A stretch of 64,000 nucleotides of DNA from a virus (IMGVR_UViG_3300035232_000745), one strand, 5' to 3'. Counted from the first letter of the stretch, positions 9,877-63,361 are shown. The notes: generated by a model from the sequence alone, not told the origin. A program made the numbers and translations.

Positions 9877-10556
9877 AAGCTTACATATTAAAGATTGATA
9901 CTCAAACATCGAATGAATATGCTAAAGTTTGTTCTGATAGCTGCAACAATATAGGACTTGATTGGGAGTATTTTAACGGGTTTCAAAACATGTCTGGAAA
10001 GATGGCTTTTAATACTTTAAATATCCCTGGTTTACCTGTAGAAACATACAGTCACATCGATAACCCTTCTACTGGCCATAAAGCTATGTGTGCTACAGCT
10101 GGTCATTTTGCGATATGGCAGAAAATTGCTAAGTCTGACCACGATGTAGGTATAGTTTTAGAACATGACGCAGTTATGTTACAACCAGTAACTATACAAA
10201 TACCAGAAAATACTATCGTTGTTCTTGGTTACAAAGTTAAAGATAAAGATAGATACGATCACAAATCTGCTGGTGTTCCTAATGATTTAATAAGAATTGA
10301 CGGGCACGAAGGAGCTCACGCTTATGCAATAACTAAAAGAACTGCTAAGTTCTTGCTCAATGAATTGAGCATACAAGGTGTTCATAGCGCAATAGATAAT
10401 GATTATTTTATTAGAAGACAGCGCAGAACTGCAATGCCTTTAACTATAGCATCACCTACACCAGCTATAGGATGGTTAAGGGAATCTACCATATGGCAAG
10501 AAAGTTCTCATACTAATTATGAATTTATACCCTCTTTTCATAAATATTATAAATAG
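9873..10556 (+). CDS. Glycosyltransferase, GT25-like
   Basis: CATAGHFAIWQK...IVLEHDAV...GAHAYAIT. Confidence 0.75.
   Translation: MKAYILKIDTQTSNEYAKVCSDSCNNIGLDWEYFNGFQNMSGKMAFNTLNIPGLPVETYSHIDNPSTGHKAMCATAGHFAIWQKIAKSDHDVGIVLEHDAVMLQPVTIQIPENTIVVLGYKVKDKDRYDHKSAGVPNDLIRIDGHEGAHAYAITKRTAKFLLNELSIQGVHSAIDNDYFIRRQRRTAMPLTIASPTPAIGWLRESTIWQESSHTNYEFIPSFHKYYK
10548..10555 (+). promoter_or_regulatory. T4-type late promoter for the internal-protein cluster
   Basis: TATAAATA about 33 nt before ATG 10588. Confidence 0.7.
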
Positions 10557-10587: not shown

Positions 10588-12696
10588 ATGGCTGATGATA
10601 AAGACGTTAAAACAGATGAAAAATCTAAAAAGAAAAATTCTAAGAATTTTGACAGTTCAAAATATATAGATGTAGAACCTACATTGGATGAAAAAGAAGA
10701 GACTAACGAGGCTCTTTTAACCAGAATGCAAAGACGTGCACGCGGTATTACAATGCGTAAAAATCGTTTTAAGATTAAAAGAGGTAGAGAAAAAGCTGCC
10801 CGCAGAATGGCATCAGTCGAAATACTTAAAAAGAGAGCACGTAAACAAGCTATACGCAATTTAAAAGCCAAATTCGCTAAAAATAAAAGATATGCTGAAA
10901 TGAGCGCTGGTGAAAAGATAGTCATCGATAAAAGAATTTCTAAGTTACCAGCATCTAGATTGAATGCTATGGCTCGTAAGTTATTGCCAAGTGTCAAAAC
11001 TGCTGAACGCGCAAGAAAAACACATGCTAAGAAAGAGTCTGTTTCTTTATCAAGCATGGTAGATAATAATTTAAATGAAGCAACAATGTGGGGTCAAAGA
11101 CAAGGCAAGCGTCCTCATATGCTTCTTGATAAAGATAACAAACCAAAATTCGATAAACGTTTTAGAATGTATAAACCTAAAATGGAAGAAAGTGTTGATG
11201 ATTTTGATGAGATCCTCAATTTATTAGAAACAACAGAAGATTACGTTAGTAGCGAACAAGGACGAGAAGATATGCAAAGCTTTAAAGAAAACACAAGGCT
11301 AAAGTTAATTAATAAAATTAAAAACTCAGGCGTAGTTAAGTCAGGTTCCATGTCAAAAGACGCACCAGTTAAAAAGGAAAAAGAAGAGATCAAAGAGCTA
11401 TCGATTGCTGACGTTCAAAAGGCCACAGCGATGGCAAAGAAACGACAAGAAAAGGAACGTAATGCTAAAGGAAAAACCAGTGTATCGACGACTGATCTTG
11501 CAGCACGTATGCCTAAGAAAGAAGCAGCTGATTTAGCAGATCTCGCAAACGAAAAGATTAAAGATAAAAAAGAAATTGGTGAAATACCAAAAGACAGCGA
11601 AAGAAAATTTAAGCGTCGTAAAACCGTAGTTGATAAAGAAATAGAAAAAAATGACGTGGAAGAAGCAGCAACTCAAAGATCTTTGTTAAACATTGTTGCT
11701 AAAAACGAAGCATTTGGTCGTGCAAGATTTTCTCAAGAACTAAAAAGAAAAGGAATGGATGTAAATAAAATGCATTCCGACAATGTTAAAGATGCAGAAG
11801 CTGCAAAGAAAAGATCGGCAGAAGCTGAAAAAGATTTAGCTGATTTCAGAAAAAAGCACGGAATGAAAGAGTCAACAAACGGTGTACGTCAACCAAAGCA
11901 TATGGACCCTAAGCCAACAAGCATTAAATCTATTACTACAACCAAAAGAAATCCTACTAAAGTTAAACCAAAACCGGCTGCAAACAACCGGCCAGGATAT
12001 GTTGCTGGAGATGAGTACATTGGTGAAGCACAACTTGACGAGTTATCGCCTGAAACAATGATGAGCTATAAAAAGAAAGCTGATTACAGTGCAGATCGTG
12101 CAGCAAACTCTGCAGCTGCTAAAATTCTTAGAGGTAAAGATAAAGACGGCAATAGAGCTGATCATTCTCCTGAACTTAAGACTATGAAAAAACGCAGAGA
12201 AGGCGACAGACTGTATAATACAAGAGCTGCCGATAAGTTAAGAAAGGCTTTACAAAAAGAAGCTACTATTCCTGATGGACAAACTGCTTTTACAAAAAGA
12301 CCAGATGTGACAGATAGCGATAAAGATAAACTTCTTAAGATTAAAGCAATGATGGATAAAGAACGCTCAAAGAAAAATACGAATGAGAAATATGCTTCAG
12401 ATGCTCAACGTAAAGCAGTATGGGCATCGAGAAATGATAAGAAAAATGAAGCCCAGGTAGACGAGATGGATATTTCTGTTAAGTCTATTACTAAGTCAGG
12501 ACTTAGAAAAGTTGGTGATGAACCTAAACTAAAGGCTGATTTAAAAGCTTTAAGAGATAGACTTAATAAAGATAAGGGTGACGGATACGGCTCAAATAAA
12601 TCATTAAAAGCTAATTACGGCGAAGAAGCTGGTGCAGGAGAACAAGGTACTGATAAATTAGTTAATAGATTTAAAAAGGACACTCCCAATGCTTAG
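10588..12696 (+). CDS. Large K/E/R-rich putative internal head (poly)protein
   Basis: Late promoter; low complexity; many x-x-E-A/S/L motifs and an LDELSPE module shared with 15535. Confidence 0.6.
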   Translation: MADDKDVKTDEKSKKKNSKNFDSSKYIDVEPTLDEKEETNEALLTRMQRRARGITMRKNRFKIKRGREKAARRMASVEILKKRARKQAIRNLKAKFAKNKRYAEMSAGEKIVIDKRISKLPASRLNAMARKLLPSVKTAERARKTHAKKESVSLSSMVDNNLNEATMWGQRQGKRPHMLLDKDNKPKFDKRFRMYKPKMEESVDDFDEILNLLETTEDYVSSEQGREDMQSFKENTRLKLINKIKNSGVVKSGSMSKDAPVKKEKEEIKELSIADVQKATAMAKKRQEKERNAKGKTSVSTTDLAARMPKKEAADLADLANEKIKDKKEIGEIPKDSERKFKRRKTVVDKEIEKNDVEEAATQRSLLNIVAKNEAFGRARFSQELKRKGMDVNKMHSDNVKDAEAAKKRSAEAEKDLADFRKKHGMKESTNGVRQPKHMDPKPTSIKSITTTKRNPTKVKPKPAANNRPGYVAGDEYIGEAQLDELSPETMMSYKKKADYSADRAANSAAAKILRGKDKDGNRADHSPELKTMKKRREGDRLYNTRAADKLRKALQKEATIPDGQTAFTKRPDVTDSDKDKLLKIKAMMDKERSKKNTNEKYASDAQRKAVWASRNDKKNEAQVDEMDISVKSITKSGLRKVGDEPKLKADLKALRDRLNKDKGDGYGSNKSLKANYGEEAGAGEQGTDKLVNRFKKDTPNA

Positions 12697-13186
12697 TTTT
12701 AAACAATTTGTTATTGAAGCAAGAGATACTCATTGCTCAGATAAATGTTGTGGTTCCGACGTTAAAAGAGAAGATTGCGATTGCCCACCAACTTGTGAGC
12801 ATTGTAATTGCAACGCAGTTGACGAAGCTTGTTGGGATACTCATAAACAAGTAGGAATGAAGAAAAAAGGCGATAAGATGGTACCAGATTGTGTACCTAA
12901 AGAAGATGTAGATGAAGGTATTGTTGGATCAGCTTTATCAGGCGTATTTAAAGGCGCTGCTAAAACAGTTGTAGGTGGAACACGCCTAGCCGGTAAGGGT
13001 ATCAGAAGAGCATCTGTAGCAGGGAGAGCAGACGCAGCTGAGAAAAAAGCTAAAAAAGCCGAACAAAAGAATAAAGATCGTGAAAGACTTACTAAGATGA
13101 AAGCAAGATACGATGCTGCAAAAGCTAAAGCAAGAGAAAGAGCTAATGCACCGGTAAAGCCAACTAAATCAGGAGCTACTTCATGA
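12689..13186 (+). CDS. Putative internal head protein (CTS-like N-terminus; Cys-rich segment)
   Basis: MLSFKQFVIE; CW...GMKKKGDKMVPDCVP module. Confidence 0.6.
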   Translation: MLSFKQFVIEARDTHCSDKCCGSDVKREDCDCPPTCEHCNCNAVDEACWDTHKQVGMKKKGDKMVPDCVPKEDVDEGIVGSALSGVFKGAAKTVVGGTRLAGKGIRRASVAGRADAAEKKAKKAEQKNKDRERLTKMKARYDAAKAKARERANAPVKPTKSGATS

Positions 13187-13413
13187 AAAAGTTTAAGTCA
13201 TTCTTAGAAGCAAAAGACCAAAATCCTGGTGAATACGATCAAGAAGGAAGCATGGCTAAGACATCTTTGCGCACTATGATAGATGCTGCAACTGAATTGT
13301 CTAATATGCTAGGCGATGATGATAATCTACCAGAATGGGTTCAAGGCAAAATTACTAAGGCCACTGATTATATTGATACCGCAAGAGATTATATGAAGTC
13401 AGAAAAGAGTTAA
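13183..13413 (+). CDS. Putative internal head protein
   Basis: MKKFKSFLE; EGSMAK...LPEWVQGKITKA. Confidence 0.6.
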   Translation: MKKFKSFLEAKDQNPGEYDQEGSMAKTSLRTMIDAATELSNMLGDDDNLPEWVQGKITKATDYIDTARDYMKSEKS

Positions 13414-13416
13414 TAA

Positions 13417-13797
13417 ATGTTAAGATTTAAGCTTTTTTGCGAAAGAGTAACTCAGAGACAGATTACTGATTTAGAAAAATTTGGTGATAAACTGCTTAAT
13501 AAGTACAATATCGATATCGAGTTTTCTAGACATTTCGCAGATAGGATGAATGATCCAAGAAACAAACCAGAGATTAAGATAGCAGAGCTTCAGAAACTGT
13601 TTAAAAAGATTGCTAAGAGAAAAGGCAAATCAATTAAACAGTTAGGGCCTGATGTGCAAGCTGTTTTAAAAGATATTGATACAGATTTAAATTTGCCTAT
13701 TGTTATTCATTATAACAAAGGTGAATTTGAGATTACGCATAAAACTATTATGCGCAAAAAGAATTTTAGAACCCCAAACGACGTGGTGAAAGTATGA
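13417..13797 (+). CDS. Putative internal protein, possible RelE/RegB-like RNase fold
   Basis: MLRFKLFCE; IEFSRHFADR...KTIMRK. Confidence 0.45.
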   Translation: MLRFKLFCERVTQRQITDLEKFGDKLLNKYNIDIEFSRHFADRMNDPRNKPEIKIAELQKLFKKIAKRKGKSIKQLGPDVQAVLKDIDTDLNLPIVIHYNKGEFEITHKTIMRKKNFRTPNDVVKV

Positions 13798-14252
13798 AAA
13801 GATTTATTCAGTTTACAGAAAACGCTAGTTACTATAAAGGCATTCCTAAAAAACAAAAAGATGACAGAGAACGTCATTTTGAAAAAGGCGCAAAGATGGA
13901 TGATGGTAATCCAGCTGCTTATAAACCTGCTCCAGGAGATAAAGATGCTAAGACTAAAGAGTCAAAGCATACAAAGAAAGCACGCGCAATGGGTTTTACA
14001 AACGAAGAGTTTGATTTCTTAGGAGAAGACGCTGCAGGTAAATCTTTAGCAGATAAAGCAAAAAAATCGGGTATGGCCGCAGGTATTTTGCGTAAAGTAT
14101 ATAATAGAGGTGTTGCGGCATGGCGTACTGGACATAAACCTGGCACAACTCCACAACAATGGGGTCATGCTAGGGTAAATTCTTTCATTACAAAGTCTTC
14201 TGGTACTTGGGGAGGAGCTGATAAAGACTTAGCTTCTAAGGTAAAAAAATGA
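13794..14252 (+). CDS. Putative internal protein (basic, DUF5824-like)
   Basis: MKRFIQFTE; LRKVYNRGVAAWRTGH...QQWGHARVNSF. Confidence 0.6.
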   Translation: MKRFIQFTENASYYKGIPKKQKDDRERHFEKGAKMDDGNPAAYKPAPGDKDAKTKESKHTKKARAMGFTNEEFDFLGEDAAGKSLADKAKKSGMAAGILRKVYNRGVAAWRTGHKPGTTPQQWGHARVNSFITKSSGTWGGADKDLASKVKK

Positions 14253-15154
14253 TAACTTTTAAACAATATATAGCAGAACAAGAAGATAAGGCTACACCTG
14301 GCTTTGATAAAGATAAAGATGGAAACGTTTTTGTTGCTCATGATACTTCATTCGACAGGAAAAAAGAAAAAGAAAAGAAAAAAGATACTAACGAATCTAT
14401 AATAAAAAAAGTTAAAAAAGCTTTTGGCGTTAAAGCAGATCATGAAAAATCTTTAGCTGATCACGCTGCGAGTCATAATAAAACAGATCACAGTGAACAT
14501 CTATCAAACCATTCTTCTCGCGCACATGATGACAATCATGAGAGTGAAGCTTTCGGTCATTTTAAACGTAACTCTTCAGAAATGAATGAGCATTTAATAA
14601 GTCAGCATAAAAAAGGATTAAGTCCTGATCATCACAAAGGCTACAGTAAAAAAGCTGCTCACGAGCACAAAATACATAAAATGGACCATTCGCATTGGGA
14701 TGACCACAGTGAATTTCCTGATCGTCACGAGCAAAAACATATTCGCAATAGCGAAGCCCATGTGCATCACACAATCCATAAACATTCTAAACCTCTTGGT
14801 AAAAAAATAACTTTGTATCACGGTTCACATCACGACTTTGGTGCAGCAGCTGCAAAACATCCAAAAGGTATAATTCACAACCCAGCTCATATGTCTACAT
14901 CACATGATCATAAATCAGCAAAAGAATTTGGAAGCGGACATATTCTTGCAATTCACGCCGATAAGAAAACTAAAGCCGTTCATATAGACGGCGAAGGCGC
15001 ACGCCAACAGTCCAACCATCCTGAAAAAGAAACAGTTCTTCCAGCTGGAACTAAATTAAAACATGTTAAATCACATAAAACATCCGACGGCTATACAGTA
15101 CACCACTTTAAAGTCCATAGTCAACACGATAATGGCAAGCATTACGATCACTAG
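14249..15154 (+). CDS. His-rich ADP-ribosyltransferase-like putative internal protein
   Basis: MITFKQYIAE; ITLYHG, MSTS, EKETVLPAGTK resemble the R-STS-ExE ART motifs. Confidence 0.65.
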   Translation: MITFKQYIAEQEDKATPGFDKDKDGNVFVAHDTSFDRKKEKEKKKDTNESIIKKVKKAFGVKADHEKSLADHAASHNKTDHSEHLSNHSSRAHDDNHESEAFGHFKRNSSEMNEHLISQHKKGLSPDHHKGYSKKAAHEHKIHKMDHSHWDDHSEFPDRHEQKHIRNSEAHVHHTIHKHSKPLGKKITLYHGSHHDFGAAAAKHPKGIIHNPAHMSTSHDHKSAKEFGSGHILAIHADKKTKAVHIDGEGARQQSNHPEKETVLPAGTKLKHVKSHKTSDGYTVHHFKVHSQHDNGKHYDH

Positions 15155-15165
15155 AGAGATATTAG

Positions 15166-15489
15166 ATGAAAACTTTTAAAACATATATTAGTGAATTATA
15201 TACTGAAGAAAAAGATCCACGTTTAAAGAACGCTGGTGTAGCCGGTTTTAATAAAGCCAAAGGTACTCCTTCTCATCCTACTAAAAGTCATATTGTTGTT
15301 GCTAAAGATGGTGACAAAGTTAAAACAATTCGATTTGGTCAGCAAGGTGCAAGTACAGCTGGTGATCCTAAAAAGGGTGAGTCTGATAAAATGAAAGCAA
15401 AACGTAAGTCGTTTAAGGCTCGCCACGGTAAAAACATCGCTAAGGGGAAAATGTCAGCCGCATATTGGGCTGATAAGGTCAAATGGTAA
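15166..15489 (+). CDS. Putative internal protein (conserved basic phage family)
   Basis: MKTFKTYISE; KTIRFGQQG...RKSFKARH...AAYWA. Confidence 0.65.
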   Translation: MKTFKTYISELYTEEKDPRLKNAGVAGFNKAKGTPSHPTKSHIVVAKDGDKVKTIRFGQQGASTAGDPKKGESDKMKAKRKSFKARHGKNIAKGKMSAAYWADKVKW

Positions 15490-15495
15490 TTTTTT

Positions 15496-15503
15496 TATAA
15501 ATA
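15496..15503 (+). promoter_or_regulatory. T4-type late promoter
   Basis: TATAAATA, intergenic. Confidence 0.7.
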
Positions 15504-15534
15504 CTATCAGTAAACATACAAAAAGGAAATCAAA

Positions 15535-15852
15535 ATGAAACGGTTTAGTACATTCATTAACGAATTAGAAGAAAGTAAAAAGAAACTTTCTGGTGGACAA
15601 AAGGCGTTAGATAAAGATAACGATGGAGACATTGACGGTGACGATTTTGCTATGATGCGTAAAAAGAAAAACGAAGAAACAGATCAGCTTGATGAATTAT
15701 CGCCTGAAAAGTTAGGAACTTATATTAATAAAGCTTCTGATGATGCTTCTGATTTCCAGAATACGTCTAAGCGTAAAAAAGGTATTATGAGAGCTACTAA
15801 GAAATTAGTTACGAAAGCTGGTGGCGATAAAGACCAGGTCACAAACTATTAA
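15535..15852 (+). CDS. Putative internal protein with EF-hand-like DxDxDG loop
   Basis: MKRFSTFINE; LDKDNDGDIDGDDF; LDELSPE. Confidence 0.6.
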   Translation: MKRFSTFINELEESKKKLSGGQKALDKDNDGDIDGDDFAMMRKKKNEETDQLDELSPEKLGTYINKASDDASDFQNTSKRKKGIMRATKKLVTKAGGDKDQVTNY

Positions 15853-15876: not shown

Positions 15877-16179
15877 ATGGCACTATGGGGAAAAACAGAT
15901 GCACTAGCTTCCGTACCAAAATGGTTGGAAGATGCTGCATCAAACACAAACAAATCAAACGATCGCGATAACGCAATCTTTGTCGACCTTACAGAGGCAG
16001 GCATTGCATCTAACCGCGCTAAAGGTATTACTGGTCCAGGCTGGTGGTTGTATCATACATCAAATAGCCGTCATTATGCAGAATGCTTGGTACCGATGAA
16101 AGTAACCGCAGTTGCTGCTGGCGACTTAGGTGTTACTGGTGATACAGCTGTTGAAGACGCGATTGTAGCTGACGCATAA
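15877..16179 (+). CDS. Conserved virion-associated hypothetical protein (MALWG family)
   Basis: MALWGKTD...GITGPGWW; strong AGGAG RBS. Confidence 0.6.
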   Translation: MALWGKTDALASVPKWLEDAASNTNKSNDRDNAIFVDLTEAGIASNRAKGITGPGWWLYHTSNSRHYAECLVPMKVTAVAAGDLGVTGDTAVEDAIVADA

Positions 16180-16562: not shown

Positions 16563-17231
16563 ATGGTAGTAGATCTATTTTTAGTCTATCAATTTATAAG
16601 ACGTTTAGCTACACCATTTAATAAATGGGAAGCACATAAACTCGGCATCATTGATGATAAGGGTAATGTCTTAATTAAATCAAAAGAATTTACTAACTCT
16701 CGTCAGAGAAAGGCGTGGGGTATATTTGATAGAATGATAGCAAATCTAAAGAAACTCCTAGCTAAAGTGCCTGGTGGTAGTTCTAGATTTGCTACATACG
16801 CAGCTGCGTTATTCCTCATTAAAGAATATAAAGTGTTCACAGATGAATCAACTCTTACTGAAGACATAAGTGATGAACAACTACAAGAATCTATGGAATT
16901 ATTTTCTAGTAGGTATAACCATTATACTGTGTTAGCTGAAAATGTCAACGAAAAGTTGAAAAAGAGTGATGATATGGGTGCTTGGATAGACGACTTTCAA
17001 GACTCAGACGCTCCTCAGTTTAAAGGTAAATCAAAAGAGAAAAAACGTAAGATGGCAATTGCTGCAAAGCTAAGTGCTATGGATGAAGAACCAGTTAATA
17101 ATGTAGGTGGTGGTAATATCGCCGGAATGGATGGTGGCCATATGTCTAAAGCAGGACAAAAGAAATGGACGTCAAAGAATAGTTCTTCAAAAAATAAAAG
17201 ACTAAGAGACATTATTGGAGATAAAACATGA
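16563..17231 (+). CDS. Conserved T4-like hypothetical protein (61.1-like N-terminus)
   Basis: DLFLVYQFIRRLATPF.KW.A.KLGIID.KG. Confidence 0.6.
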   Translation: MVVDLFLVYQFIRRLATPFNKWEAHKLGIIDDKGNVLIKSKEFTNSRQRKAWGIFDRMIANLKKLLAKVPGGSSRFATYAAALFLIKEYKVFTDESTLTEDISDEQLQESMELFSSRYNHYTVLAENVNEKLKKSDDMGAWIDDFQDSDAPQFKGKSKEKKRKMAIAAKLSAMDEEPVNNVGGGNIAGMDGGHMSKAGQKKWTSKNSSSKNKRLRDIIGDKT

Positions 17232-18076
17232 TTACGTTAGAACAATTCAGTGCAATGATTCCTTCAAATAAAAATCCTGAAGCTTGGTATGAAGCAGCAG
17301 TTCCTATGTTTGAAAAATATGAAATCAATACAAACAATCGTATCGCTGGCTTCATGGCTCAGTGTGCGCATGAGTCATTAGACTTTACCCGTTTAGTAGA
17401 AAATCTTAATTATTCAGAAAAAGCATTAAACTCAGTGTTTGGTCGTTACTTTGGAAAGGGTAAAAGAAATGCAAAAGACTACGCTAGAAACCAAGAAAAA
17501 ATTGCAAACTACGTCTATCAAGATGAGTTTAGGTCCAAACGAGGAGCCTTGGGAAACGTTAATCCCGGCGATGGCTGGCTCTTTAGGGGTCGAGGTATCA
17601 AGCAGCTTACAGGCAGAAATAATTACACACAATTCGCAAATACAGTAGATATGACAGCCGAAGAAGCGGCTGAGTATGTTTCAACGCCTAAGGGCGCTAT
17701 TGAGTCTGCTTGTTGGTTTTGGTCTACAAATAAGTTAGAAAAATGGGCAGATAAAGGCGATAATAAAGGGTTAACTAAAAAAATTAATGGCGGTACTATT
17801 GGTTTAGATGACCGTAATCGTCGTTGGGATGAAGCATTAGCAATCCTTGGCGGTAAAGCACCAGCCCCCAAGAAAACATCTACAAATGCAGTACGCACTC
17901 TACGTAAAGGTATGCAAGGTGATGATGTTAAAAAGATGCAAAAGGCTATTGGCGTAACAGCTGATGGTGATTTTGGATTTGGAACTCTTACTGCCGTAAA
18001 GAAATGGCAAAAGATGAACGGTTTAACTGCAGATGGTATTGTTGGACCAGCAACTCAAGCTAAAATGTTTAGTTAG
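17228..18076 (+). CDS. Endolysin: GH19 domain plus C-terminal peptidoglycan-binding domain
   Basis: FMAQCAHES, ENLNYS, FRGRGIKQLTGR.NY, INGG; then ADGDFG...ADGIVGP. Confidence 0.92.
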   Translation: MITLEQFSAMIPSNKNPEAWYEAAVPMFEKYEINTNNRIAGFMAQCAHESLDFTRLVENLNYSEKALNSVFGRYFGKGKRNAKDYARNQEKIANYVYQDEFRSKRGALGNVNPGDGWLFRGRGIKQLTGRNNYTQFANTVDMTAEEAAEYVSTPKGAIESACWFWSTNKLEKWADKGDNKGLTKKINGGTIGLDDRNRRWDEALAILGGKAPAPKKTSTNAVRTLRKGMQGDDVKKMQKAIGVTADGDFGFGTLTAVKKWQKMNGLTADGIVGPATQAKMFS

Positions 18077-60261: not shown

Positions 60262-61572
60262 TTAGAACAAGTTGCTTACTGCAACACGTCTGTAGTACAC
60301 GTTTGCGTTCGCAGTAAGTGCACCGTTGCCTTGAGATCCGCCAGCAGCGAATGGGTTTGAAACCATGCCGTAACGAGTCTTAAAGCCGATTTTTGGTTGG
60401 AAAGAATTCTCACCAACTGCACGAACCATTTGTAACGGCACATATGGGCAATAGAACAATCCAGCATCGAAAGATGAAGAACCTTTATATCCTACGACCA
60501 TGTAGTTTGCACCTGCATATGGATCGATATACACTTTGTAACGACCGTTTAATACACCAGCGAATGTGTTGCCTGTGTCGTCTACGTTCAAAGAGTTAGA
60601 GTTAAGAGCTGGAGTGTAATCTAGTACACCTGCCATTTGAAGTGCAGAAGCAACATCAGATGAACAGATAACCATGTTACCTTTACCACGTCTTGTACCC
60701 TTAGCAATAGCGTTAGCTTCTTGCTCGATTTGGAACATAAGACCTTTGAACTTCTCTACTGACCAACGACCGTTAGCATCGACATCTAAGTCGAAAGTAC
60801 CGGCAGAAGCAGTTGCAGTTGCACCAGCAACAGCGTTTGAGTAGATTGTACGAACTAATTCACGGTTGATTTCAACTAAGATTTCAGACTGTAAGATGTT
60901 CGCTAGTTCTGTTTCAGCATCTAGACCGTGAACGGCTTTAAGATCCTGAGCAAGCTCTGTTGTGTATTCCGCTTTTAACGCACGAGACTTAGCAGCAACA
61001 GTAACTTTTTCAATTGAGAAAGCCATTTCTGCGAAGTTAGTACCGTTACCGTCGCCTAATGCTTCAGCTTCAGTTGTACCCATACCAGTACCAGTTGTTT
61101 CTGATCCTGCACCCAATGCGTTAGCATGTGTACCAGCACCTGAGAAGTCTGTATCGGCTTCGTTATAGAATACTTCGTTAGCCGCAGCTTGCGTAGTATG
61201 TGTTGAACGCATTGCGAAGATCAAGCCTGTTGGGCCTGTCATTGGCTGAACGCCAGCAATATCGTATGCGATCAAGTTTGGCATTGCACGACGTACTAAG
61301 CTGATCAATACTGGGTCATAACCAGCTGTTGGTCCGCCTGCAGCAGAAGCTGAGCCGAAGCCGCCTGTACTTGCATCGTTTGCGTGTGTTTCGTTTAGAA
61401 GAGAACTCATAGAAGCAGACGTATCGCCAGACTCCATAAGTGCTTTTTCTGTATTTTCAAGAATTGTAGCAGTTACGCTTTTCTTGTGTTGTGAATCGAT
61501 TGGCGTGAAAGAAGAGTGCTCAAGAATTGGGCCCCATTTTTCCACGAGCATCTGATAGTTTGACTGAGTCAT
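60262..61572 (-). CDS. 23: Major capsid protein gp23
   Basis: LVRRAMPNLIAYDIAGVQPMTGPTGLIFAMR, KSRALKAEYT.ELAQDLKAVHGLDAE, FQPKIGFKTRYG. Confidence 0.98.
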   Translation of the reverse strand: MTQSNYQMLVEKWGPILEHSSFTPIDSQHKKSVTATILENTEKALMESGDTSASMSSLLNETHANDASTGGFGSASAAGGPTAGYDPVLISLVRRAMPNLIAYDIAGVQPMTGPTGLIFAMRSTHTTQAAANEVFYNEADTDFSGAGTHANALGAGSETTGTGMGTTEAEALGDGNGTNFAEMAFSIEKVTVAAKSRALKAEYTTELAQDLKAVHGLDAETELANILQSEILVEINRELVRTIYSNAVAGATATASAGTFDLDVDANGRWSVEKFKGLMFQIEQEANAIAKGTRRGKGNMVICSSDVASALQMAGVLDYTPALNSNSLNVDDTGNTFAGVLNGRYKVYIDPYAGANYMVVGYKGSSSFDAGLFYCPYVPLQMVRAVGENSFQPKIGFKTRYGMVSNPFAAGGSQGNGALTANANVYYRRVAVSNLF

Positions 61573-61606: not shown

Positions 61607-61614
61607 TATTTATA
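61607..61614 (-). promoter_or_regulatory. T4-type late promoter for gene 23
   Basis: TATTTATA on +. Confidence 0.8.
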
Positions 61615-61641: not shown

Positions 61642-62598
61642 TTATGATTGCTTCGTGTTAAAAGCCGATAAAAGAGCATTAATAGAAGAGTGCTCAGAAA
61701 GCGGTATTTTTGCTTCTGTATCTTCAGTAATGATTTCTTCTTCCTCAGTTACTTCTTCCACTACATGAGTAGCTTTCTTAAAGAAAGACTCTTTTAGTGT
61801 TGCAAGATCTGATTTATATGTGTCGACATCAGCAAAGTTTAATTTTTCTGAAAGTACTTTAAATCTTTCTTGTTCTACAAGTGTAAGACCTTCTGACATT
61901 TCAACAAAAACTTCATGAGCATCAGCTTCAGCTAATACAGCTTTTAATTCTGCATTTTCTGTAATCGCTTTATTAGCGAATTCTTTTGCTTCTGCTGCTT
62001 CTTCTTCAAGCGCTTTTACGATGTCTAGAGTTTCCTCATTAACGTCGATGTTGTGCTCTTCGAACAAACCTTTAAGCCCTGACATTAAGGACTCAGCTAC
62101 TTCAACCTTAATACCGGCTTCAATAGCTACTGCGTTCTCTGTCATCCACTCTTCTACAACGTAGTCGAGATACGAGTCAAGATTTTCAACAATATTATTT
62201 ACTGATTCTTCTGCAGCTGTGTGCATTTCTTCAGCAATTCTTTCTACTTCTTCTGCGATAGTTTTGTTCGCTTTAGCAGTAGCGGCTTCGTTAACTGCAG
62301 CTTCGAATACCAAAGTTACTTTGCTTGTAAATTCTTCTGACAAATCCATGCCTTCGAACATAGTCGCAATAGACTCTTCGATATCGATAACTTCTTCAAC
62401 AATCTCTTCTGACTCTGCGTCAACAGCGTCTTCTTTCATGCCTGGTGTTGGTGTACTGATTTTATCAGCAGTTGGATCAACTGCTTTTTTAACGTCAGCT
62501 TTCTTTTTCTTAATTGTTCCGCCAGCCGGTGTCGCAGGTTCTTCTACTGAAGAAATTCCGTCATCAGCTACGAACTTTTCGTCTAGTTCATTTGACAT
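61642..62598 (-). CDS. 22: Prohead core scaffold gp22
   Basis: LSEEF..K...VFEAAV, DSYLDYVVEEWM.EN.VAIE.GIK; synteny. Confidence 0.93.
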   Translation of the reverse strand: MSNELDEKFVADDGISSVEEPATPAGGTIKKKKADVKKAVDPTADKISTPTPGMKEDAVDAESEEIVEEVIDIEESIATMFEGMDLSEEFTSKVTLVFEAAVNEAATAKANKTIAEEVERIAEEMHTAAEESVNNIVENLDSYLDYVVEEWMTENAVAIEAGIKVEVAESLMSGLKGLFEEHNIDVNEETLDIVKALEEEAAEAKEFANKAITENAELKAVLAEADAHEVFVEMSEGLTLVEQERFKVLSEKLNFADVDTYKSDLATLKESFFKKATHVVEEVTEEEEIITEDTEAKIPLSEHSSINALLSAFNTKQS

Positions 62599-62640: not shown

Positions 62641-62648
62641 TATTTATA
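62641..62648 (-). promoter_or_regulatory. T4-type late promoter for gene 22
   Basis: TATTTATA on +. Confidence 0.75.
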
Positions 62649-62671: not shown

Positions 62672-63361
62672 TTATTTTTTTAGTCCATTAACGAACCGTT
62701 GGAACAATTCAGAAGCTACGCTCTCGTCAATTTTGTGAACGACTCTTCTAATTTGTTTTTCTACAACATCCTGAATTTCTTCTATAACTTGCTCAACTGG
62801 CTCTTGTGCTACCCAGTTTCCTGAAGCTATATCATAGTAATACTCAGCATTTTCCATGATACCATTTACGAAACAGTTAGGTCCAGAAGGATCCGTTACG
62901 ATATCAACCGTTGCAAGATGAAAATCTTTTTGGACTTCCATAATTCCTTGTGCCGTTGGTTTAACAGAACCAAGGCCTCTTGTAGATACACCGATTTTTA
63001 CATCTTCATCCATGAATGTTTTAACGATCTCACCCATTGGTGTACTAAGAATTTTAGCTTTACCAGTAAAGTTTGATCCTTCTCTTTTCATTTCAGTAAT
63101 CAAATGCGAAACGCGATCGCCATTGATTGTAGGACCGTCTGGATGTCCTAGTTCACCAAGAGCTCTTTTAGTTTCGATAAAATCTTTCTGATAACGGCCC
63201 ATTTCTTTTTCTAGAATTTCAGCAGGGTATATACGACCATTACGGTTTTTAAGATCGCCTTGCATGAAAATACCTTCGATGAAATGGGTTTTCTTACCAG
63301 TTTCTTCGTTAATTTCTGTGGATACCGCTGTATCTTCTGTTACTTCAGTAATTAAAATCAT
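62672..63361 (-). CDS. 21: Prohead protease gp21
   Basis: IEGIFMQ...NRNGRIYP, ALGELGHP, GVSTRGLGS, DIVTDPS. Confidence 0.96.
   Translation of the reverse strand: MILITEVTEDTAVSTEINEETGKKTHFIEGIFMQGDLKNRNGRIYPAEILEKEMGRYQKDFIETKRALGELGHPDGPTINGDRVSHLITEMKREGSNFTGKAKILSTPMGEIVKTFMDEDVKIGVSTRGLGSVKPTAQGIMEVQKDFHLATVDIVTDPSGPNCFVNGIMENAEYYYDIASGNWVAQEPVEQVIEEIQDVVEKQIRRVVHKIDESVASELFQRFVNGLKK

Follow-up and report, generated by a model that had tools for sequence, protein, structure and literature searches.

The locus considered here raises a simple question: why should seven consecutive genes of one virus, unrelated to each other in the bodies of their products, all begin with the same short peptide? 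These genes lie head to tail on the plus strand at positions 12689-15852 of the viral sequence IMGVR_UViG_3300035232_000745, of which the whole 64,000-nucleotide stretch was analysed (hereafter the window), and each opens with M-x-x-F-x-x-[F/Y]-x(1-2)-E, called the tag below. An initial annotation of this DNA had likened the tag to the capsid-targeting sequence (CTS) of phage T4 and had proposed that it is carried by a modular, injected cargo; the seven genes, their coordinates and their tagged N-termini were all found exactly as it had described them. From sequence comparison, the locus is best explained as a hypervariable operon for internal (cargo) proteins belonging to a marine T4-like myovirus, and by analogy with T4 the seven products are probably packaged cargo that is injected with the DNA. 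That the tags send the products to the prohead appears likely, with injection and effector roles of the cargo held at somewhat lower confidence. The seven genes, named W.1 to W.7, are as follows.

12689-13186, plus strand: W.1, tag MLSFKQFVIE; a Cys-rich module, a CW..GMKKKG..VP.CVP module and a basic tail
13183-13413, plus strand: W.2, tag MKKFKSFLE; small acidic protein, predicted mature isoelectric point (pI) 4.3
13417-13797, plus strand: W.3, tag MLRFKLFCE; conserved family with the signature HF.DR..D.RN ... KTIMRKK.F
13794-14252, plus strand: W.4, tag MKRFIQFTE; DUF5824 domain alone (PF19141, E=4.5e-17)
14249-15154, plus strand: W.5, tag MITFKQYIAE; His-rich protein with a predicted ADP-ribosyltransferase (ART) fold (LYHG / STS / EKE)
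15166-15489, plus strand: W.6, tag MKTFKTYISE; basic module common among marine phages (phrog_7595)
15535-15852, plus strand: W.7, tag MKRFSTFINE; a Ca-loop-like motif, DKDNDGDIDGDD, and an LDELSPE module

The shared starts are real and highly non-random. In the window, the strict motif is met at 7 of 571 ATG contexts with at least 50 amino acids (aa) downstream, and all seven are the genes of the array. For comparison, four contigs that are relatives of the window phage were used (C116, C102, C78 and C202). Among open reading frame (ORF) starts taken from the first ATG, the motif was found at 7 of 178 in the window, 4 of 227 in C116, 8 of 105 in C102 and 3 of 50 in C78, and all 22 of these 560 starts, 15 of them outside the window, lie inside the syntenic array. 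Without its Met, the motif occurs N-terminally 20 times and internally four times (weak matches) in the window and the related contigs. Searched as DNA, the 10-residue pattern gave zero to two matches per approximately 40-195 kb in each of the control phages ICBM2, RHph_I1_18, PhiM12 and S-PM2, and the same pattern run on T4 picks out ipII and ipIII.

What is shared is the peptide and neither the gene bodies nor the DNA. As the initial annotation had stated, the bodies are unrelated, since no pair among the seven matched in BLASTP; for the same reason, an origin of the array by tandem duplication from a single ancestral gene was rejected. The first 27 nucleotides of the seven genes have a mean nucleotide identity of only 59% with mixed synonymous codons, and the DNA upstream of them is unrelated, hence the conservation is at the level of the peptide and not of the DNA. 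The possibility that these gene starts act at the level of the nucleic acid, as a context for translation initiation or as a site of recombination for gene shuffling, with the peptide itself being functionless, has in its favor that the starts are AT-rich and that the breakpoints of an indel between the window and C102, described below, fall in or beside tags. However, the codons vary (TTT/TTC, AAA/AAG, ATA/ATT, TAT versus TTT) and the peptide pattern survives across families whose DNA has fully diverged, which makes this explanation highly improbable. A DNA-level signal as the main explanation was hence rejected on codon and nucleotide divergence, though the tags do act as recombination joints.

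The peptide resembles the T4 CTS in detail. The CTS of T4 internal proteins was reportedly described by Mullaney & Black in 1996 as a leader removed by the gp21 protease. In the T4 record, ipII and ipIII start with MKTYQEFIAE, which bears out the leader quoted in the initial annotation, and ipI starts with MKTFKEFTS...ITE. In the CTS, residues 4 and 7 are the main determinants of targeting, and residues 8 and 10 are those of processing (PMC9026906). All seven tags of the window have F at position 4 and F or Y at position 7, and four of them have V or I at position 8 together with E at position 10 (VIE, IAE, ISE and INE). The other three are 9-mers ending in FLE, FCE and FTE, with F at P3 and L, C or T at P2. 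The proteins predicted to dock and remove such a tag are encoded in the same window, on the minus strand near its right end, together with the capsid protein.

60262-61572, minus strand: gp23 major capsid protein, predicted maturation site LLNE/THAND (cut at the slash), aligning with FLTE/AEIGG of T4
61642-62598, minus strand: gp22-type scaffolding core protein, predicted docking partner of the tag (PF25623, E=2.4e-58)
62672-63361, minus strand: gp21-type prohead protease, predicted tag-removing enzyme (PF03420, E=1e-32)

Because this protease keeps the GELxHP and GVSxRGLGS blocks of T4 gp21, and because gp23 has LLNE opposite FLTE of T4, an (L/I)-x-E specificity of the protease in the window phage is a reasonable expectation. 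Could the N-terminus instead be another sorting or regulatory peptide, directing products to a different virion compartment, a chaperone or a membrane (as an amphipathic helix), or acting as a degron, with a merely convergent likeness to the CTS? The motif is short, its 9-mers do not follow the gp21 rule, and the proposed placement of the cargo in heads comes from comparison with T4, all of which leaves some room for such a role. On the other side, the T4 match falls exactly on those positions to which function has been mapped, few occurrences of the motif lie outside T4-like contigs encoding gp21, the same regular expression recovers true internal proteins in T4, the final Glu of the tags stands in an I/L/V-x-E context that resembles the gp23 site of the phage itself, and the tags have no hydrophobic stretch for membrane insertion, so that another sorting function is quite improbable. 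As separate observations, the prohead protease itself starts with MILITE, resembling M(M)ELITE, the short propeptide found in T4 Alt, which hints at N-terminal self-processing, and T4 gene 61.1 (54 aa; NC_000866 18966-19130, minus strand; beside the primase gene 61) starts with MKTFKEFIKE, a perfect CTS-like decapeptide, and to our knowledge is not listed among the internal proteins.

The tag is separable from the bodies, which occur in other phages with and without it and in different arrangements. The body of W.6 is common in unrelated marine podo- and siphoviruses, and gp31 of the Lentibacter podovirus ICBM2 corresponds to it from its first residue, untagged. The body of W.3 forms the C-terminal domain of gp159, a 602-aa protein of Sinorhizobium phage PhiM12 whose remainder resembles the large basic protein encoded upstream of W.1, and the DUF5824 domain of W.4 is the C-terminal domain of cytidylyltransferase proteins in HTVC008M (gp130) and C202. 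In C78, the bodies of W.2 and W.6 are fused under a single tag, proteins of 376-389 aa in C78 and C116 string together modules of W.1 and W.7, and W.1 modules recur in other combinations in both contigs. C102, the closest relative with 86-91% DNA identity to the window, carries an eighth tagged gene coding for an HD_4 (RelA/SpoT-type) hydrolase. The content of the array is thus variable among relatives, in keeping with the modular locus envisaged in the initial annotation. A 545-bp indel between the window and C102 runs from just after the tag of the HD gene to just after the tag of the next gene, and since it spans one tag/body junction to another, W.6 of the window consists of the ribosome-binding site and tag of the C102 HD gene joined to the W.6 body. 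Untagged, fused and split bodies together with this indel indicate, from sequence comparison, that cargo units are exchanged in frame at the tag boundary, and the location of the indel breakpoints in or next to tags points to the tags serving as recombination joints. Families retrieved by body similarity keep the tag although their bodies diverge to 28-50% identity.

How widespread such tags are was addressed by a scan of IMG/VR with the pattern M-K-x-F-K-x-[F/Y]-I-x-E, which gave at least 120 loci; among the first 84 matches, 78 stand at the start of a reading frame with 40 codons or more. Ten false positives internal to NrdB were taken out, and the loci left, at least 99, hold 169 complete ORFs with an N-terminal tag, whose bodies fall, among the matches listed, into 83 unrelated clusters, 64 of them singletons. 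The median mature pI is 9.4, P1' next to the Glu is occupied by S, A or G in 47%, and 9-mers make up 14% of tags. T4-like markers are present in the flanks of 50 loci and gp21 lies elsewhere on the record for 10 more, so that at least 60 of the 120 loci are T4-like, and both near-complete genomes in the census encode gp21. Among cluster representatives, Pfam matches include ART-PolyVal (E=1e-23), Tox-ART-HYD1, a ParB-like nuclease (ParBc_2) and HD_4, besides adenylate-kinase and Zeta-like kinases, GNAT, 2OG oxygenase and RNA ligase, and about three quarters of the 83 representatives gave no Pfam match. Several of these families were defined from, or have been described in, virion-packaged polyvalent proteins (PMC5512222). 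In named relatives the tags are fewer or looser, with two in Syn30, about five in Melnitz and two or three in HTVC008M. The NrdB matches are a case of their own: in T4-like phages this small subunit of ribonucleotide reductase has a conserved internal MKLFKTYI.E near residue 208 that mimics the tag, and it is the one recurrent internal match in IMG/VR, judged to be due to chance (loci L046, L080, L094, L118 and others).

A bolder proposal, which we put forward tentatively and would sooner doubt than accept, is that the CTS-like tag constitutes a general, sequence-readable address label in environmental T4-like phages, that the dozens of unrelated and mostly unannotated families bearing it represent an injected "first-strike" proteome, a counterpart of polyvalent proteins built from single genes, and that the tag/body boundary has a second role as a joint dedicated to in-frame recombination, by which phages could swap, fuse and split cargo cassettes somewhat in the manner of an integron. 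Were the tag to work in the T4 manner, sequence alone would suffice to list which proteins are packaged and injected by uncultured marine phages of the T4 type.

The cargo proteins themselves are diverse. Predicted mature pI values of W.1 to W.7 are 9.2, 4.3, 9.9, 9.9, 9.2, 10.2 and 6.5, hence five of the seven are basic (9.2-10.2), in line with the basic proteins listed in the initial annotation, and mature internal proteins of T4 compute to 9.0-9.7. Its Cys-rich label fits W.1, whose mature form has 10 Cys. W.3 belongs to a family of 143 metagenomic clusters that are nearly all tagged and share an invariant polar signature; nothing meaningful was found for it in Pfam and only unnamed viral clusters in the Atlas, its AlphaFold2 (AF2) model is poor (predicted local distance difference test score, pLDDT, 58), and Foldseek and a profile search of PDB sequences returned only noise. 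The suggestion that W.3 is RNase-like was consequently dropped, being unsupported by any sequence or fold search. For W.7, the EF-hand-like label is borne out only as far as the single Ca-loop-like motif, since EF-hand and dockerin matches are all sub-threshold. The W.6 body matches part of phrog_220, annotated as "minor head protein and DNA pilot". In relatives, the cargo further includes a Zeta-toxin/AAA_33-like kinase, the cytidylyltransferase with DUF5824, DUF6267 and DUF6321. Homology of the cargo to T4 internal proteins IPI, IPII and IPIII was considered and not accepted, the matches being marginal: the gapped match of the W.6 family to IPI covers 56 aa at 34%, and a search across the PDB did not bring up IPI, and the match of gene 3 of C116 (L011:8800-9015, minus strand; 71 aa, tagged) to IPII is helped by the tag, with a weak similarity outside it (body-only E=3e-4 in a three-sequence database).

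W.5 had been called ART-like in the initial annotation. Members of its metagenomic family retain the tag together with three motifs, LYHG, STS and EKE-TV(I/L)PAGTKL. In the AF2 model (predicted template modelling score, pTM, 0.70), the tag forms a helix at residues 4-13 followed by a disordered linker, and Foldseek returned 121 matches at E<=0.001, of which the top ones, C3bot, ExoS/T, iota, CDTa and VIP2, have a probability of 1.0 and a template modelling (TM) score of about 0.6 on the target. On the basis of this model, W.5 is predicted to have an ART fold of the C3/VIP2-like class, and the fold part of the label is thus upheld. STS (216-218) and EKE (259-261) are conserved among 25 family members. 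W.5 is also rich in His (47 of 291 mature residues, 16%), with many of these His invariant across the family.

Transcription of the array is predicted to be of a late type. The following features complete the operon.

10548-10555, plus strand: TATAAATA, a late-promoter-like octamer heading the operon, ahead of the large upstream gene
10588-12696, plus strand: large basic protein encoded by the first gene in the operon, with about 702 aa when counted from MADDKD (the longest ORF begins at 10519; pI 9.9)
15496-15503, plus strand: second TATAAATA late-promoter-like motif, ahead of W.7

The start of W.1 lies 8 nucleotides before the stop of the large upstream gene, the junctions that follow consist of three ATGA overlaps and two spacers of 3 and 11 nucleotides, and W.7 alone is set apart by a 45-nucleotide gap holding the second TATAAATA. 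Each of the seven starts is preceded, 6-13 nucleotides upstream, by a purine-rich Shine-Dalgarno-like stretch. The same octamer is located ahead of gp23 (61607-61614, minus strand) and gp22 (62641-62648, minus strand), and window-wide it has 15 matches versus 8 expected, a mild enrichment. Since genes 1-6 overlap or abut, and TATAAATA is found in the locus only at 10548 and 15496 and is shared with gp22 and gp23, the array reads as one late-type operon with an internal second promoter and not as seven separately promoted genes, the late class being assigned from the promoter motif. The earlier placement of the genes under late promoters is hence an overstatement and is borne out only loosely. 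The large basic protein matches the central part of phrog_23027, has no canonical tag and shares the LDELSPE module with W.7; it is possibly co-packaged. That it might be a gp21-cut polyprotein was considered and set aside, since its nine [LIV]-x-E sites in 702 aa are, by our own estimate, about what composition predicts and give no evidence either way. In relatives, this protein has an N-terminus of the form ...KLKGFKDFDSSKYI.VE, a displaced tag-like element.

Basic cargo behind a basic first gene might also mean that the tag does target the prohead, with the proteins serving there as accessories of the head core or scaffold, or as DNA-condensing basic proteins, and not as effectors for the next host. 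The five basic mature products, the median pI of 9.4 in the census and the highly basic 702-aa protein that heads the operon all fit such an in-head role, and T4 IPII and IPIII were long viewed simply as basic DNA-associated proteins. However, enzyme cargo such as ART, HD_4, Zeta-like kinase, ART-PolyVal, ParB-like nuclease, GNAT and RNA ligase has no obvious structural part to play, cargo content differs between near-identical phages as would fit accessory functions, and T4 IPI and IPIII act in host-specific counter-defence. A purely in-head role is hence unlikely, and injected effectors remain the preferred explanation.

From the tags and their specificity, the machinery genes, the modularity and the modelled ART fold, we infer docking, cleavage, retention in the head, ejection and effector function in the following course. 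Late transcription from TATAAATA-type promoters would be followed by joint translation of the close-packed genes, and the N-terminal helix of 9-10 residues, with aromatics at positions 4 and 7, would dock each protein on the gp22 core during prohead assembly, as the CTS of T4 IPII and IPIII does. A gp21-type protease would then cleave after the Glu of the tag in its (I/L/V)-x-E context, as in gp23, and the mostly basic mature proteins would remain with the DNA in the head and be ejected into the next host, where they could act ahead of any phage gene expression. The ART-fold protein may be analogous in role to T4 Alt, with a RelA/SpoT-type HD hydrolase and a Zeta-like kinase filling the same slot in relatives, and cargo would be gained, lost, fused and split via in-frame recombination at the tag/body boundary. 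The earlier proposal is thus supported in part: its core, a T4-type capsid-targeting tag on modular cargo, agrees with all the computational tests made, among them the match at T4 positions, the presence of gp21, gp22 and gp23, the untagged homologs, the boundary indel and the modelled ART fold, with presence in virions, cleavage and injection following as its predicted consequences.

Several observations weigh against this course of events. The 9-mers depart from the T4 (L/I)-x-E rule by their F-x-E ends, so that their proteins may be targeted but not cut, and T4 IPIII with Asp at position 10 is reported to be targeted without cleavage (PMC9026906). In the seven products of the window, the predicted cut is followed by A, A, R, N, Q, L and L, a set less uniformly small than at T4 sites, and the tag logos of the census are biased because the seed pattern fixed several tag positions. 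A DUF6267 protein is tagged in C202 (L012, 3384-4634) and in Melnitz, whereas its orthologs in the cyanophages S-PM2 (L160, 4498-6273) and Syn30 are untagged and start directly with the body, hence one cargo is tagged in some lineages and not in others. A search of the literature and of homolog records found no proteomic, cleavage or injection record for the window phage or its relatives, and the records of S-PM2 and PhiM12, which mark some proteins as virion structural, do not so mark the homologs of the cargo or of the large basic protein. For W.5, the position of the catalytic Arg is occupied by His191 across the 25 family members, with Ser in the two most distant, and the Pfam match to ADPrib_exo_Tox (PF03496) is sub-threshold (20.3 bits versus a cut-off of 23.4, E=4e-4), compared with 126.9 bits (E=4e-38) for T4 Alt. 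Since W.5 also has no sequence similarity to T4 Alt, ModA or ModB and is not an Alt ortholog, its enzymatic activity is uncertain.

Up to now, the T4 CTS, its processing by gp21 and the anti-restriction role of injected IPI have been established, as has the fact that internal proteins vary from one T-even phage to another (PMC3012670), and gene content at the T-even internal-protein locus was noted to differ between close relatives (Repoila 1994, cited in PMC3012670). The CTS has also been suggested as a possible general loading route for varied proteins in T4-like phages (PMC9026906). In the literature searched, with incomplete coverage, no description of CTS-like tag arrays in marine T4-like phages was found, and internal proteins and CTS are unmentioned in Petrov et al. 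2010. The array is best taken as a new, richer example of a known T4-type mechanism and not as a new kind of system. It has in common with T4 an N-terminal leader of 9-10 residues of the form M-K-x-[F/Y]-x-x-[F/Y]-I-x-E, with aromatics at 4 and 7 and, in four of the seven tags, an aliphatic residue at position 8 together with Glu at position 10; as in T4, the bodies are unrelated and mostly basic, gp21, gp22 and gp23 are encoded by the same genome, the promoter context is putatively late and gene content varies between close relatives. Unlike T4, with its three dispersed genes, it has seven tagged genes (eight in a relative) in one operon, bodies without significant similarity to IPI, IPII or IPIII, enzyme folds among the cargo and three 9-mer tags off the (L/I)-x-E rule, and it belongs to a marine and not an enterobacterial lineage and is known from sequence alone. 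Compared with T4 Alt, a head-packaged, gp21-processed and injected ADP-ribosyltransferase, W.5 has in common the predicted ART fold, a putative late-gene setting and a propeptide ending in I-x-E, and differs in having an internal-protein-type CTS instead of the short MELITE leader, no sequence resemblance, a His where the R-S-E class has Arg, and its 16% His.

Polyvalent proteins of phages and conjugative elements (Iyer et al. 2017, PMC5512222) are a second point of reference. As in these, the effector domains of the array are disparate, delivery with the DNA is predicted, the genes lie beside virion genes, domain fusion, fission and shuffling are extensive, and families are common to both (ART-PolyVal, ParB-like nuclease and RelA/SpoT-type HD in the census, besides the phrog_220 match of W.6). 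However, the window domains mostly stand as separate small tagged genes, with several modules joined only in W.1 and in the C78 and C116 proteins of 376-389 aa, as opposed to 2-15 domains per giant polypeptide with a MuF, portal or metallopeptidase (MPTase) anchor, and their delivery is predicted to proceed via CTS and gp21 and not by fusion to a structural domain. The T4 internal proteins and the polyvalent proteins, treated separately so far, are thereby linked through the same effector domains in both delivery formats. The value of the locus lies in this overlap, in a catalogue of candidate injected proteins and in clean cassette exchange at the tag boundary, where a tag-to-tag indel in near-identical phages gives a concrete picture of arsenal turnover. 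If the proposed delivery is true, the catalogue, with 83 unrelated families from a small sample, would offer focused candidates for counter-defence and host takeover, acting before phage transcription, a stage that is hard to reach experimentally, and one could try the tag as a handle for packaging in non-coli T4-like phages.

The phage setting agrees with a T4-like myovirus as the source of the 64-kb window (G+C of approximately 36%), which encodes a gp32-type single-stranded DNA-binding protein, UvsX, gp41 helicase, gp61 primase, thymidylate synthase and ribonucleotide reductase. By protein, the nearest named relatives are Kyanoviridae-type marine phages (Pelagibacter phage HTVC008M, Methylophilales phage Melnitz and cyanophages) and rhizobial phages of the T4 superfamily; DNA searches of the locus against the phage collection, for near and distant matches, gave nothing useful. 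The syntenic locus is present on four contigs of the nearest assembly, G001. This assembly is a mixed bin of 3.6 Mb in 270 contigs with at least eight different T4-like phage contigs (eight Peptidase_S77 matches), and it is not to be taken as the host. Downstream, the array is bordered by a conserved flank.

15877-16179, plus strand: conserved downstream flank, homolog of an annotated virion structural protein of S-PM2 (E=7e-13)

Further downstream, about 1.4 kb from the array, lies an endolysin gene (17228-18076), and T4 ipII and ipIII are likewise beside the lysozyme gene e; this proximity may be coincidence or old synteny. The metagenomic protein P0030 (459 aa) joins a "VVDLFLVYQF" protein, a homolog of the product of 16563-17231 in the window, to a tagged ART cargo, and represents either a fusion or a read-through call.

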